NCBI GenBank assembly: GCA_010405405.1
Contig: MU004235.1
Coordinates: forward strand, 1,130,538-1,194,537
Reading direction: 5' to 3'
DNA from: Microthyrium microscopicum
Lineage: Eukaryota
Length of the DNA stretch: 64,000 nucleotides
The position numbers and the translations under genes were made by a program. Below are positions 8,683-14,523 of the stretch, piece after piece. Every line of letters starts with the position of its first letter. The stretch's first letter is position 1. Under the pieces are notes generated by a model that was not told the DNA's origin, did not search any database, and worked only from the letters and a program-made list of their open reading frames with translations.

Positions 8683-9453
8683 TTAGTTACTCAATGCCAT
8701 TATGGAATTGACGATGTCGTTGTCATTTTCCTTGAGAGCCTTGACCGCCTTTTTGCGCGACACACTGGCTTGCGCCATGACGAGGCTAATGTCCTTGTCT
8801 TCCAAACCTTCCTCATCGACCTCTTCACCATCGTCTTCATCTTCGTCCTTCTTGGCTTCAGCGGCATCAATGGCTTTGCCCTTGTGGCTGTGATCGTGGC
8901 CCTCGTGTCCGGCATCAACGTTGGCCATCTGCTGGGCAGCCGCGGCTTGAGCCTGGGAGTTAAGGTCCTCTATCTTGGCTTCGCCGAAGATACTGTTGCT
9001 AGTGGTTAGCTTGGGATAGAGTGAAGGAGGTCGAAAGCGTACATATAGGTGTTGCTCGACGGGGACTTGTAGACATCTGGGCTGTTGATAACGAACAAGA
9101 TCTACAATCAATTGGTTAGTATCATTTAAAATATCAGGCGCTGGAGTTCCCGCATGGAGAGCTTCAGGGCGCTAACGATTCTCTGGAAAAGGAGCACTTA
9201 CGCCCTTTGGTCGGCGAAGAGTAACTCGAGTAATGCCTTCGACTTGCTTCAAGCCAAGCTTTGCAATTTGCTTGCGAGCCTTCTTCTCATTGCGTGAATG
9301 GATAGCAACTTGAGCTCCGGCGGGTATGCTAGCCTCCTCGCCAGCATCGGCAGCCTCTGGCTCAGAGTCGGAATCAGAGCTGTCTGCCTCCTCAACTTGA
9401 ACGTTCTTCTTCTCTGGCTCATCAGGGAGCTCCTCGATGCGTGAACTCGCCAT
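8683..9453 (-). CDS. EGD2: Nascent polypeptide-associated complex subunit alpha
   Basis: SRNEKKARK...[46 protein letters not shown] and C-terminal [23 protein letters not shown]...[10 protein letters not shown]. Two introns. Confidence 0.97.
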
Positions 9454-10012
9454 TTCGATCGGTAGGGTGAGCGGAATGGGTAGAATGGGTAGCGGGGTTT
9501 GGCGGTGAAATTCAGCACAACTTTCAGGCTGGATGTTCTGGTTGTCTAAGAAAACGATGTGGGCAAGTAGTCTACTCCGAAGTTAATCCGGTATTCGCGC
9601 TAGTGGCGCTTATTCAGCTACCAGTAGCCGCGACCACACATTTACAGTATAAACTCTCACCATTTGAGATTCATTGTGAGGATTGAAGCCCCTGGGAAGT
9701 CGTGGAAATAATCAACCGCAATTAAACGTTCGCGACAACGCTACTGCCAAGTTCTACGAAGCACAATAGAGAAATTTATCTTGAAAAGCCACTCTTGGTG
9801 GTTGCAAAATGTTCGCATTCAACTCCAGCCCATAGCCTAATGCACAAGAGTCATTGAGACTTAATCCTAGTCTGATGACATGAAAGGGTTATTTTGATTC
9901 AATAGACAAGTTCATGGATACCATCCATCCTTCCTTATCTCGCTTGGAATGAAGTGCCCACGACTCTTTGAGAATCCACCCATTATCCGAACTGATCATA
10001 AACGCCGTTTTC

Positions 10013-10818
10013 CTATGCTTTGCTCTTCGCCGCCAACTTCTTCGTCTGGAAGGTTCGCTGTGCCATAGTTAGTCAAATTGGTCCTTGACGCAGTGCGCGG
10101 CGAAAGAAAGATTGAGTACGATCAAGATGCTGTAGAAACGGTCCCAAGATTTTTTCTGTGCCTCCACAAACAGCTCTCCGTAGACTCAAATCTTTCTATA
10201 CGACGGGAAAAGTGAAGGTATAACCCACCTGCTTGCGCGCACGCATGGCCTTGAAACGCTCAAAGTCGTTTAGTTGTCTCCGCTTCGTGCTCTTGACCCG
10301 GCTCTGAGCATGAGCACCCTCCTCCCACTTCTTGTCCACACCAGCGTCTGCCCACTTCTTCTTCAGAGGAGCATGTCCAATAGCACGAGGAAGTTTCTCG
10401 ATTTCGAATGGTGTGAGGGCGAGATGTGCGAGCGCAGCGGAGTGACGTGGGACGAGCTTGTCAGCTGATTCTGACGGGTTCTCGACGACAACCTAAAGAG
10501 AATGAGTAATTGCGCTTGGTTATATGACGGAGTATCGGATGGGAGTTGTGGGCTTTCAGTGCGGTGGACGTACTCGGTTGGCATCGTGAATTTCGACAAT
10601 GGTGGCAATACTGTCTCTGCGTTAGTGGTTTGATGCAAGAAACAAGTCGATTGACACCTACCGGTTCTCGTATTTGGTTCCACTGGAAAAGAGGACGACA
10701 CGGCCGACTTTGACGTTCTTCCAGCTATTAGACCGTTAGTATTCCAAATCCTAGCTGTGGTGAGGCCGTAGCGTTTCCATTAAGCATACCGAGGAGTTGT
10801 GATTGTAACGTCGCCCAT
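10013..10818 (-). CDS. RPL14: 60S ribosomal protein L14 (eL14)
   Basis: Five exons splice to MGDVTITTPRWKNVKVGRVVLF...IATIVEIHDANRVVV...LNDFERFKAMRARKQRTFQTKKLAAKSKA. Not seen in the ORF track because the exons are short. Confidence 0.93.
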
Positions 10819-11118
10819 TTTGTCTGTGTGCAAGAGTCGCCGAGGGTGGAATTGGGTCTTGCGGAGTTTGATGGGTTGTAGATTTCTAGTCAGAGAGGTT
10901 TGGTGTTGAGGTCAGATTTGTGGGCGTCCGTGCGCTTCTTGGCGCTAGTCCCACTTCCGCTCTTGCCTTCAAGATTTTATTTGACTTACAACCTCCAACA
11001 TTCTTCCAAACCTTTTCTTTCTCAGCACCGCGAAAAGCCTCCAGCTGTGGCCTTGGACTGCGCCTTTTTGTATTCAATTTCAAAGGTACGCATGATATAC
11101 TGCTCCTATTCCTTTTTT

Positions 11119-11218
11119 CTGATGAACAAAATTTGCGATTGATGCCTGCTACCGGAGTTACACGCCTGTTTCTCATACGGAGTTGGACAGCTGATATTCA
11201 ATTTCTTACATATTCTGA
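11119..11218 (+). ncRNA. Box C/D snoRNA, snR87/U16-like
   Basis: C box CTGATGA at 11119 followed by AATTTGCG, complementary to 18S CGCAAAUU (the snR87/U16 target, recalled). D box CTGA at 11215 is preceded by TTCTTACATATT, complementary to LSU AAUAUGUAAGAA. Confidence 0.75.
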
Positions 11219-11368
11219 TCTTTCAACCCACTGATTGCTTGCTAAAGATTCTTTTTGAGCATTGCTAACATGGCTTCCTAGGTATGGTATTCAGTAAGAA
11301 CAAGAGCGCTACTTTGTGAGAGCACCATCTTGGTAAGTCGAGCACATTTTTCACTCCCTCCAATTTTC

Positions 11369-11449
11369 CTGATGATAAACGTTTTCTGCCTAGATAGTAT
11401 CTGATCCGCAAGGAAATGATATTACCCAAACTAACACCAAGATCTCTGA
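11369..11449 (+). ncRNA. Box C/D snoRNA, U24/snR24-like
   Basis: C box CTGATGA at 11369, D' CTGA at 11401, C'-like ATGATA at 11416. The terminal CACCAAGATCT-CTGA matches the recalled U24 D guide (LSU AGAUCUUGGUG). Confidence 0.78.
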
Positions 11450-11699
11450 GCTTTTACCACATCTACACTTTGTTCACTGCCACTTTGAGAATGAAAGCTA
11501 ATCTGAACATGAGCACAGATTTTCCACTTGTAAAAGGTTCTCCGTCTTGATGACGAGTCAGAGTTCATATTAGATAGTACATCTATGGCCAATATAAGCA
11601 GAGTTTTCCACTTCTTTTCCCATCTAGTGAGGCCCCAGGCTATCGGGTATCTCAGCGCCAAATATCCAAATGCTTGCGCTATCATAGTACAAAGTTCCC

Positions 11700-14523
11700 T
11701 CAAAACCAGTTCGACCCTCCTCCAAAGAACGTCGGTCCCATTCCATTCGAGTTGGCTTGGTTCTCTGGTTGCATGGCCCAGTCCTGCACCATATCATCCC
11801 ACGTTGTCCAGTTCATGGAATCATCAGCTGTCATGTTTCCCGTCATCAAGCCAGTATTTGGCTGCACCGTCCCCATACCAGGTGCCACCTCCATGCCTAG
11901 CGGCACGCCCATCATATTCGTGTTTTGTATTTCATTCAGCCATTCATTCGAAAAGTCCGGTAATGGTAGTTGCTGCTGCGTCGCTGATGTCGGTGCCTCT
12001 AATGATGGCTGTCCAGGCATCATTGGCTGTGCAGCTAATACGGCCGGCTGAGCACTTATATCACCCGCGGCTGGGAAGCCTGCTGGCATCGGATCACCAG
12101 GTAGTGTTGTCGACACAGTCCACATGCCCAATAACGAATTCGGTGCGTCTGAAGCGTGTAGTGGTGCAGTATTCGTGCCGCCGGTTTGTGCATAGCCTAT
12201 GCCGAGGATTGTGGGGTTGAGCATGCTGTTCGTCGTCGTCTCTGCATTCATGTTCGTCAATTCGTTCTTCGTCGTTAGTAACGAAGGATTGCTAAAGTCA
12301 AAGGAGGTGTTTGCGCGCTGTTCGGCAAGCGCTTGGGTGCGGGCGTGGAGTGCTTTGCCGCGCAATAGTTTGAGTGGTTTCCAGAGATGTGCGTCTGGCT
12401 TTTCGATGGTGGTATCGGTGTCCCATTGTGAGTCCATGGAAAGATCTACTGCAGTCCATGCGCGGTCTACTTCGGGGCCAGTGGTTCGTTCACAAAGTTC
12501 GCTCAGGAGAAAGGCAATGGCGTGCCATTGAGTATCTGCTCGTGATTAGTATCTAGGTAGACAATCATACATGCAAACCTACAGGTTTGGAGCAGCCAAG
12601 CATATCTCCTGTACTTCTCTGACCGGCCTTCAGTGCGAAATGAGATGCCATACTCCACACATTCAAGAGCTCGCTCAAACAGCTCATTACGGACTTCTTG
12701 AGGAAGGCTTTTTCCTCCATCTTTTCTTTGAAATGGCTGATATAGCATCTAAGCATGATTAGTCTTGCGCTTGAGATCTAATGCTAGAAAGACTTACCAG
12801 CCACATATTAGATATGACTAGTCTCGCAATAGTAGCGCAAACCCAGGCGAGCGGTTGTGACAAATCCGCGTCCTTCAGATATTTTTCTTCAATCATAGTT
12901 TTAAAGTCAAGCAATATTTTCTTTTTTCTCTCCAACATGTCTTTTGAAGCGGGAGGAGGACCTTTGTGCATTGGCTTGAACCCTCTCATGGGCCCAAACC
13001 CAAAGAGCTTTTTCTTAGCCATACCAATCTCAAAGCGGATGATATTAAATGTCAGGTCCGTTATACCCACTCGGGACTCCGGTACTGATTCCATATCGAA
13101 CGTTATATCCGAATCGTTGAGATTGCGCGGCATTTTGGTATCTGCCATTGCGTACATTGCCGGATCGGCGCCCAAATCCTCACTCGCTCTACTGTCCACT
13201 ACAACAGCATGCCACCATATTCGGCGTCGCATTTCTCTTTGAAAGGGTTGTAAGGTAGGATAGTGATCGCCGTCTCGATGCATGCCCAGACCTTGCGCTA
13301 TACGCAACGCCAGAGAAGATAGGGACCATATTACTCGGCTTTCAGTATTGCGCCGGAGACATGTGAGGTAGAGAATGAAGGCTTGTAGCAGAAATATCGA
13401 GTCGCTCCTCAAAAATTCTGCGCGCGCAAGTGACTGCTCCATGCCGAAGCGATATCTGGCCAGCAGGTCGTTCTTCGACTCACCCCATCGAATTTTGCAA
13501 TCTTCCGGCCAAGTGCTTTGCACTGCGCTGTAACAAATCGCCATTACCAAGCAGTCGAGATTCTTGTCCCAGTTCTCCATCTTTGTAGCATAATTCTCTA
13601 TCATTTTGTCGCGGGTGGGAATATGAACCAGTTTGATCATAGGGTCAACATTCTCCTTGAACGTTTCCCAGTAAGTGTAGATCTGATCAGCAGGAGGCAG
13701 TATGGTGGAAATATCGATATTTAAGGAGCTGAGACCGAAGATAAATCCTTGATTCGTAGATGACGAATTGGAAACGTGTGTCGACGGCGAAGGGTAATCA
13801 TCCTCCTCCGAGTCTGACCATCGCATAACTTCCCCCTTGAGATCCTCAACCTAACCATTGTTAGCTATGACTGCAATATTGAATCGATGGGCATGAAAAG
13901 CATACCTCCTCATTCAGCAAAGACCAAAATCCCGGCTTGATATACCTCGTCCGTCCCGCCTTTACCAGCAAAGTCCCAAACCGATCCGCCAAATGGTCCA
14001 TATTCGGCGGGCCATCCTTCCCACCACCCTCCTTCTTTTTCTCTTTCTTGAGTTCCCGAAACTCCTTCTTCAGCCTTTCAAACTTCTCATCTGTCGTCTC
14101 GTCCGCCAACCCTGCACCCGCACCAGCGCCATCTACATGTGGCACCGCCAGCCCCGCCGCTGCCAATGCCTCTGCGCTATCCTCTGGCGATACTTGTGCG
14201 CCAAGCGTCTGGACTACGGATTCTAACCGGCGCAGGCGCTCAACAAGCTCCTGGTCCTGTGGTTTGCGCGGTTTGCGCGGCGCGCGGCCGGGCGCGGGGA
14301 ATATACATTCGATGGATTGGCGGATGCAGTTGGAGCAGGGGTGTTTTTTGTCGCATTTGACTTTGCGCCGGCGGCAAGTCACGCAGGAACGCGGGTTGAG
14401 GGAGCTAGATGCGGTGTGCGTGGATGGCGAGATGGAGTTCTGGTGAGTTTGGCCGTCAGGAGATATTGACTCTTGGATGCCAGGTGAGGTCTTTGAATCC
14501 TCTGCCATGTGTTGGAAGGCCAT
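11700..14523 (-). CDS. Zn2Cys6 transcription factor with fungal-specific TF (Fungal_trans) domain
   Basis: RSCVTCRRRKVKCDKKHPCSNCIRQSIECIFP cluster; middle homology region LRIAQGLGMHRDG...EMRRRIWW...DTKMPRNLNDSD. Three introns. Confidence 0.93.

Follow-up and report, generated by a model that had tools for sequence, protein, structure and literature searches.

Does the short stretch of DNA between the ribosomal protein gene RPL14 and a convergent transcription factor gene in Microthyrium microscopicum hold a non-coding host gene for snoRNAs, and, if so, is that host coupled to RPL14 by a common promoter? A box C/D snoRNA is a stable RNA that is bound by Nop1, Nop56, Nop58 and Snu13 and directs methylation. 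A first-pass annotation of the window, the whole 64-kb stretch of DNA analysed here, had proposed a host with non-coding exons and one C/D snoRNA in each of two introns, head-to-head with RPL14, and had suggested that a bidirectional promoter links the ribosomal protein to rRNA-modification guides.

Genomic setting

The genome to which the window belongs spans 37.1 Mb in 58 contigs and has the gene content of a filamentous ascomycete. From left to right, the locus comprises the NAC-alpha gene (8683..9453, minus strand, recognised by its PF01849 relatives), RPL14 (minus), the snoRNA host (plus) and a Zn2Cys6 transcription factor gene, which lies on the minus strand, converges with the host and has its stop near 11700. 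NAC-alpha stands in tandem behind RPL14 and, by its linkage in related groups, is a member of a conserved block. The LTV1 ribosome-assembly gene (PF04180, 15550-16875) lies 4 kb downstream within the window.

RPL14, which encodes the 60S ribosomal protein eL14 (Pfam PF01929, L14e, E 3.4e-25), was parsed as a coding sequence of five exons at 10013..10818 on the minus strand. Parsing by hand places its introns at 10789-10725, 10661-10611, 10573-10493 and 10228-10058; transcript contigs carry the joints 10057/10229 and 10610/10662, with the end of the second intron 6 nt beyond the hand parse. At 171 nt, the last intron (10058-10228) is a long one, with an inverted repeat of 12 bp; this hairpin-like intron was considered as a conserved element and rejected, its length ranging from 63 to 171 nt and 12 relatives having no common sequence by eye. 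In a tree of 30 RPL14 rows, the window falls into a 14-row group (97/95) together with loci whose adjoining ORF is nearest to proteins of Hortaea, Oleoguttula and Zasmidium, which are genera of Dothideomycetes; we therefore take the organism to be a Dothideomycete.

The RPL14 start codon (10818, minus strand) lies 268 nt from the first GT of host intron 1, in agreement with the earlier estimate of about 270 bp on the opposite strand, and 244 nt from the start of the contig piece that represents the host. The stretch common to both genes, 10819..11061, would contain the RPL14 5' UTR and, judged by position only, a presumed divergent promoter region.

Structure and splicing of the host gene

On the plus strand, the host is read as three exons and two GT..AG introns. 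Exon 1 (11062..11085) is represented by a contig piece that starts at about 11062 and gives 22 letters before the first joint. Intron 1 (11086..11281, 196 nt), the host of snoRNA 1, runs from GTACGC at 11086 through the branch motif GCTAAC at 11264-11269 (branch A 11268) to TAG at 11279-11281, and is followed by exon 2 (11282..11332, 51 nt), which is delimited by contig joints and contains only an 11-codon ATG frame. Intron 2 (11333..11518, 186 nt), the host of snoRNA 2, opens with GTAAGT at 11333, has its branch motif GCTAAT at 11497-11502 (branch A 11501) and closes with CAG at 11516-11518. The putatively non-coding exon 3 (11519..11700) leads toward the 3' end of the Zn2Cys6 gene, where the contig merges with this neighbour. 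C boxes (CTGATGA) begin at 11119 and 11369 and terminal D boxes (CTGA) at 11215 and 11446, so that terminal box D precedes branch A by 50 nt in intron 1 and 52 nt in intron 2; the boxes thus lie upstream of the branch point by tens of nucleotides, as had been claimed.

Transcript evidence comes from one contig of one run (X1), aligned at 80% likeness in a run whose RNA status is predicted; it skips both 11086-11281 and 11333-11518, with GT..AG ends on the plus strand, and its shorter side measures 52 letters at intron 2 but 22 at intron 1, where it falls short of the bridging threshold of 31 letters. Eighteen contigs of X1 were aligned to the window, 15 of them at least 99% alike and three at 95-99%, and because the run carries the expected NAC-alpha and RPL14 joints, it can be taken to hold spliced RNA. 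A second run (X2) covers RPL14 only. As the host contig merges with its antisense neighbour, depth and 3' extent are uninformative on the host. The two canonical introns of the first-pass annotation, each with C/D boxes, were both read from the sequence and recovered as plus-strand joints in a single contig.

A composite pattern of 5' splice site, C box, D box, branch point and 3' splice site, written after the locus had been seen, matches the 64-kb window twice, at 11086 and 11333; 100 dinucleotide shuffles gave a mean of 0.07 matches and a maximum of one, and none gave two.

Several further candidates were considered at the locus. ACTAAC..AAG at 11430-11441 was rejected as the end of intron 2, lying inside snoRNA 2 and being passed over by the contig, which splices at 11518. 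Two more candidates were likewise rejected, with no Rfam match up to E 10: a third snoRNA at TGATGA 11548, and words resembling boxes around 9873-9996, antisense to the 3' end of RPL14. Exon 2 opens with GTATGG directly after the 3' splice site (11279-11287), an arrangement that makes recursive or exon-skipping splicing possible; the contig contains the two-intron form only.

snoRNA 1

Both RNAs combine terminal C/D and internal D'/C' boxes with antisense elements whose D+5 position falls on a modification site; three guides measure 13, 11 and 10 bp, and the fourth has 8 bp plus an accessory loop. snoRNA 1 (11115..11220, plus strand) is assigned by Rfam, pairing with the organism's own rRNA and conservation to the snR87/Afu-514/Nc CD10 family. 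The Rfam model Afu_514 (RF01515) scores 43 bits at 11115-11220 against a cut-off of 39, the sole above-cut-off match in the whole window, and it exceeded the cut-off in 17/17 related loci tested (among the matches listed). The yeast snR87 model (RF01216), in a search of the own genome with 48-60 candidates scored, returned five weak matches that did not include the locus.

The boxes lie at 11119-11125 (C), 11139-11142 (D'), 11191-11197 (C') and 11215-11218 (D). The D' guide (11130-11137) forms 8 bp with the own SSU rRNA, placing D+5 on A432, and the D guide (11202-11214) forms 13 bp with the own LSU rRNA, placing D+5 on U1034, both positions being in unspliced rDNA numbering. Mapped by spacing to neighbouring sites, the yeast equivalents are 18S A436 and 25S U1058, the latter number derived from an N. 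crassa offset of 19; the spacing of the D' target on the own rRNA agrees with yeast Cm414/Am420/Am436. The D' guide also gave longer, G-U-rich pairings with the LSU. By eye, the own rDNA (G000:C18:8203-14609) contains three spliceosomal-type insertions in the SSU and, in the LSU, one insertion of about 165 nt and one longer, presumably group I-like; the own U6 gene (G000:C8:343259-343413) appears to hold a spliceosomal-type intron of about 50 nt.

An accessory loop (CGCCTG, 11163-11168) shows complementarity to the 18S nucleotides immediately 5' of the target and fits the extra base-pairing described for snR87/U16 (PMC3116282). Its GCC-G motif is invariant in 56/56 alignment rows, and the inner stem has 83% of cells paired with both-side changes at 5/7 pairs (both among the matches listed). 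GCCTGCT at 11144-11150 was rejected as an accessory element because only the loop motif is conserved. In the alignment of related loci (among the matches listed), the named outer helix is poorly paired (46.7%), the named structure and the same structure slid by -1 are nearly equal (67.2 vs 62.6% paired), and RNAalifold kept only 4 pairs on the aligned relatives. Single-sequence folding was no better than that of shuffles (z 0.78 for snoRNA 1, 0.20 for snoRNA 2).

Published portions of earlier surveys support the family assignment. Afu-514 was cloned 74 times from Aspergillus fumigatus, where it lies between Afu6g03830 and Afu6g03840 and was listed as an orphan (PMC2377427); AFUA_6G03830 is RPL14 according to the relevant part of another report (PMC3569664). 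Nc CD10, which was likewise cloned, is intronic, has the same starting guide and a D target given as 26S-Um1039 (PMC2780460), and the family CD_10, as covered in part of a later survey by Canzler et al. (2018), equals snR87, with a D' target at 18S-436 and a D target in Pezizomycotina only (PMC5824354). The claim that the unit is invisible to ORF-based annotation holds for the host, which ORF callers miss, but overstates the novelty: Rfam contains snoRNA 1, and A. fumigatus yielded it as a clone whose gene lies between RPL14 and the next gene.

snoRNA 2

snoRNA 2 (11366..11452, plus strand), identified by own-rRNA pairing and by orthologues in relatives, is a U24-like RNA with two predicted guides and with boxes at 11369-11375 (C), 11401-11404 (D'), 11416-11422 (C') and 11446-11449 (D). 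The D guide (11435-11445) forms 11 bp with D+5 on own LSU C1412, equivalent to the yeast Cm1437 site targeted by U24, and the D' guide (11390-11399) forms a perfect 10 bp with D+5 on own LSU U2464, equivalent to the yeast U2347 site targeted by snR65. The spacing of these targets on the own LSU agrees with yeast Cm1437/Am1449/Gm1450 and Cm2337/Um2347; U6 and 5.8S/ITS, considered as guide targets, gave no convincing pairing.

Rfam support, expected for both RNAs, was found for snoRNA 1 alone, snoRNA 2 being above no Rfam cut-off. SNORD24 scores 21 bits here against a cut-off of 41, and it is the top family in 8/17 related loci, always below the cut-off and at best 39.6 vs 41 (among the matches listed). 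The snR65 model (RF01204) did not match the locus in an own-genome search with 48-60 candidates scored. Exact patterns in the own genome found the Cm1437 guide three times and the C box with the U2347 guide in two places, with snoRNA context at this locus only; the two other Cm1437-guide matches were rejected as snoRNAs, having neither C boxes nor intron context.

snoRNA 2 varies at its D' side. Orthologues occur in 39/55 groups, and the U2347 guide is found at D' in 30 of these 39, a U2724 guide in seven (L005, L009, L022, L035, L040, L041, L080) and neither in two, all among the matches listed. In a tree rooted by midpoint only, the seven U2724 groups fall together on one side of a branch with weak support (71/69; present in 76% of bootstrap trees); a single origin of the swap from U2347 to U2724 is therefore possible. 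U2724 is also a site whose guide has moved between families, according to part of the survey cited above (PMC5824354). In the own genome, another intronic snoRNA, which lies separately on contig C8 (L136), has a U2724 guide at its box D.

If snoRNA 2 were a single-guide RNA of U24 type, acting on Cm1437 only, its D' side would be accessory or neutral and U2347 would not be methylated through it. The replacement or degradation of the D' guide in 9/39 groups (among the matches listed) is compatible with this, as is its overlap with a stretch that, in LSU fragments of fungal type, can also pair immediately upstream of the C1437 site, with at least 7 bp in 12/38 rows. The single-guide reading is nevertheless improbable, given that a U2347-type guide followed by a D'-like word at the right spacing is kept in 30/39 groups (among the matches listed), that the match here is a perfect 10 bp with D+5 on a known yeast site, and that the only other own-genome match to the C box and U2347 guide has no snoRNA context. 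A GCAC word before the D' guide in 27/39 groups (among the matches listed) might pair with the bases directly 5' of the C1437 duplex, but because accessory pairing upstream of C1437 on the own LSU was no better than in the control (3.9 vs 3.6 nt), it is a lead only. The double-guide reading is accordingly preferred.

Conservation in related fungi

Metagenome contigs were scanned with both snoRNA 1 guides, giving at least 117 loci in which these guides are conserved by construction and other features are independent. A D'-box filter kept 103 loci and dropped 14, one of which (L051) was restored for its 104.5 bits on Afu_514, leaving a final 104 loci, which form 55 groups when clustered at 93% identity; as the groups are related to each other, counts of groups are not counts of independent events. 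At least 42 GTDB prokaryote contigs (L137-L178) contain pieces of eukaryotic LSU rRNA, which are probably contamination.

Among the matches listed, the C box and D' box of snoRNA 1 are conserved outside the search pattern, and 5' splice-like sites occur in 52/53 groups. The branch motif follows box D at a median of 55 nt, in 52/53 groups for intron 1 and in 32 groups for intron 2 (among the matches listed); a distance of about 50 nt between box D and branch point is described, in the portion of the source available, as optimal for splicing-dependent assembly (PMC8162545). Orthologues of snoRNA 2 are present in 32/42 groups with at least 500 nt of downstream sequence (among the matches listed). 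A snoRNA 2 profile searched against 36 sources returned three matches, namely L006 and L041, both outside the training set, and the window itself, and none in loci called negative.

Could boxes and splice-like words have come together in intergenic DNA by chance? Box words are short, and 13/117 of the metagenome pattern matches are indeed chance hits (among the matches listed). Set against the Rfam score above cut-off, the observed splice joints, the shuffles that never gave two composite matches and conservation in 55 groups (among the matches listed), such an origin has a negligible probability. With high confidence, then, the locus is a spliced host gene of UHG/GAS5 type with two intronic C/D snoRNAs and four predicted rRNA methylation guides beside RPL14 and NAC-alpha, and the earlier proposal that the intronic RNAs are rRNA-modification guides is supported by the Rfam match, the pairing with own rRNA and conservation, a case built from sequence.

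The following pathway is proposed. The host would be transcribed on the plus strand away from RPL14, presumably by Pol II, and both introns would be spliced out, as in the one contig, leaving exons that seem to encode nothing useful. Box C/D proteins would load on each intron during splicing, aided by the spacing of about 50 nt between box D and branch point, and the excised introns would be trimmed, as in the known pathway, to snoRNAs of about 103 and 83 nt. By the D+5 rule, snoRNA 1 is predicted to direct 2'-O-methylation of 18S A436, through its 8-bp guide and hairpin-loop accessory element, and of 25S U1058, and snoRNA 2 that of 25S C1437 and U2347 (yeast numbering). The host has been kept beside RPL14 and NAC-alpha in most sampled lineages.

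Coding capacity of the host

The non-coding character claimed for the exons agrees with all that was examined, their coding content amounting to a frame of 11 codons in exon 2 and, in exon 3, a frame that shadows the antisense gene and lacks support. The two introns might alternatively belong to the 5' UTR of a protein-coding gene, and two observations lend themselves to this: the 211-aa plus-strand frame that starts at 11585, and, in five related groups, a same-strand ORF of 354-365 aa whose start, at the first ATG found there, lies 33-92 nt beyond the end of intron 2 (L006, L028, L056, L019, L050; e.g. L028:2966-4063, plus strand). The 211-aa frame, however, shadows the terminal exon of the Zn2Cys6 gene on the minus strand and has no protein-atlas match above 0.77; frames further downstream in the window, from about 11770 onward, have no counterpart in any of 31 other groups (among the matches listed), and the only own-genome match to the relatives' ORF lies on another contig. 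For the window, a protein-coding host is thus very improbable, and the non-coding reading is retained.

The ORF of the relatives is of interest in its own right. Some of its named relatives are labelled F-box domain proteins, it has no Pfam match, and a homologue occurs in the opposite orientation in L045, L078, L023, L073 and L067. Two of the five groups, L006 and L028, have both snoRNAs and the ORF without RPL14 within 2.5 kb. We infer that an inversion may have brought an F-box-like ORF under the host promoter in the five groups, with the host serving as its 5' UTR.

Relationship to RPL14

The predicted synteny with RPL14 extends well beyond the window. RPL14 lies upstream on the opposite strand in 28/36 groups with at least 1000 nt of upstream sequence, and never on the same strand; its distance to the guide is below 800 nt in 26/28 groups and 1.5-1.8 kb in two (all among the matches listed). 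Among the 33 groups with both flanks, 25 have RPL14 and snoRNA 2, six neither, two snoRNA 2 only and none RPL14 only (among the matches listed); L007, whose short upstream flank places it outside the 33, has RPL14 without snoRNA 2. Some groups without both RPL14 and snoRNA 2 start like Nc CD10 and are on that ground presumed to be Sordariomycetes, and in two groups without RPL14 and snoRNA 2 (L036, L068) the gene next to the unit on its downstream side encodes the 90S pre-ribosome factor CMS1.

Whether this adjacency reflects a shared promoter is less certain. With 244 nt between the RPL14 start codon and the host contig piece, the locus has the geometry of a bidirectional promoter (divergent starts within about 1 kb), and a promoter region common to host and RPL14, a conclusion drawn from gene arrangement to which we give about half our credence, is the likeliest reason why the two have stayed together. 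Somewhat less probable, although a serious contender, is a real host that has its own promoter, shares no control with RPL14 and lies near it as a relic of the gene order in a conserved NAC-alpha/RPL14 block. NAC-alpha, which is in tandem behind RPL14 in at least 20 related groups, is itself linked in 16/29 groups with at least 2400 nt upstream (among the matches listed), so that linkage alone is no proof of promoter sharing; moreover, the 8/36 groups without upstream RPL14 (among the matches listed) make the link dispensable. The two groups with 1.5-1.8 kb between RPL14 and the guide, and among the 33 the six that keep snoRNA 1 alone and the two that keep both snoRNAs without RPL14, point the same way (all among the matches listed). 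No strong common promoter motif was found in 31 RPL14-host intergenic stretches, where the most enriched words come from the RPL14 5' UTR and first intron; TGTGGG, CTTGGC and GCGCTA are mildly enriched across these stretches and present at 10819..11061. Mere leftover order is harder to reconcile with an upstream side that persists and a downstream side that varies, where the Zn2Cys6 gene of the window occurs in 0/28 groups and 32 groups show 17 neighbour sets, or with a short RPL14-to-guide distance that is always on opposite strands (both among the matches listed). A shared promoter is plausible and slightly preferred.

Taken jointly, these readings would make the locus an old Pezizomycotina block of NAC-alpha, RPL14 and divergent host that ties a ribosomal protein to four methylations via one promoter, with an undescribed U24-type snoRNA 2 that underwent a D' swap from U2347 to U2724 and, in one Dothideomycete branch, an inversion that made the host the 5' UTR of an F-box-like gene. 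As a whole, this combination is tentative and rather doubtful. If true, it would mean that filamentous fungi have a physical means of co-regulating ribosomal protein and snoRNA genes, comparable with the Homol-D boxes of fission yeasts. If the promoter is shared, the stretch of about 250 nt would make a conveniently small system for asking how moulds match the output of ribosomal proteins to that of rRNA modification.

Comparison with known systems

Both non-coding snoRNA hosts and the shuffling of guides have been described in fungi before, snoRNA 1 is known, and the locus is a feature of known kind that leaves the known mechanism of C/D snoRNAs unchanged. What is new is the conserved position of the cluster, together with the way in which snoRNA 2 combines its guides and changes between lineages. 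The mainly open-access literature searched contained neither the two-snoRNA cluster nor its link to RPL14 nor a U24/snR65 combination of guides; family and methylation evidence may be in the supplements of PMC5824354 and PMC12723226. The locus fills an annotation gap, namely a two-snoRNA host of many filamentous fungi that ORF callers miss, with snoRNA 2 also missed by Rfam cut-offs. snoRNA 2 is, in addition, a candidate guide for 25S U2347 in filamentous fungi, which the available part of the 55-RNA N. crassa list does not include. Relatives further display two evolutionary steps at one locus, a guide exchange and, as a candidate, a non-coding host gaining a coding region.

With snR87, Afu-514 and Nc CD10, snoRNA 1 shares the D' guide for 18S A436, the Pezizomycotina D guide (N. 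crassa 25S 1039-1042) and size, as well as, in the published portions covered, an intronic position in N. crassa and a place adjoining RPL14 in A. fumigatus. Afu-514 was, in the part of its report available, listed as an intergenic orphan when cloned, whereas here it lies within a spliced intron and has a partner snoRNA. snoRNA 2 shares with U24/snR24/SNORD24 a guide for 25S Cm1437 at box D; in yeast, U24 has Am1449/Gm1450 as further targets, whereas the D' side of snoRNA 2 pairs with the U2347 site instead (U2724 in seven groups). Its N. crassa counterpart, CD50, is listed in the portion covered as intergenic with the guide at D', in contrast to an intronic RNA with the guide at box D. With snR65 of S. 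cerevisiae (25S Um2347), snoRNA 2 shares the predicted target base but gives no model match, and since the U2347 guide sits on a U24-like RNA, the likeness is a functional match, with homology only a candidate.

Regarding regulation, the available portion of Diao et al. reports TBF1 motifs upstream of ribosomal protein genes in A. fumigatus and N. crassa, but no motif common to ribosomal protein and snoRNA genes (PMC4138321); the co-regulation considered there follows the same biological logic, and physical promoter sharing would be another route to it. From the N. crassa clusters I-V the host differs in its pair of snoRNAs; in N. crassa, CD10 is listed as intronic and CD50 as intergenic, and a conserved head-to-head link with a ribosomal protein gene does not figure in the portions of those reports covered. 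In architecture, the host resembles both these clusters and the animal UHG and GAS5 genes, with one snoRNA per intron, short non-coding exons and a box D that precedes the branch point by about 50 nt.
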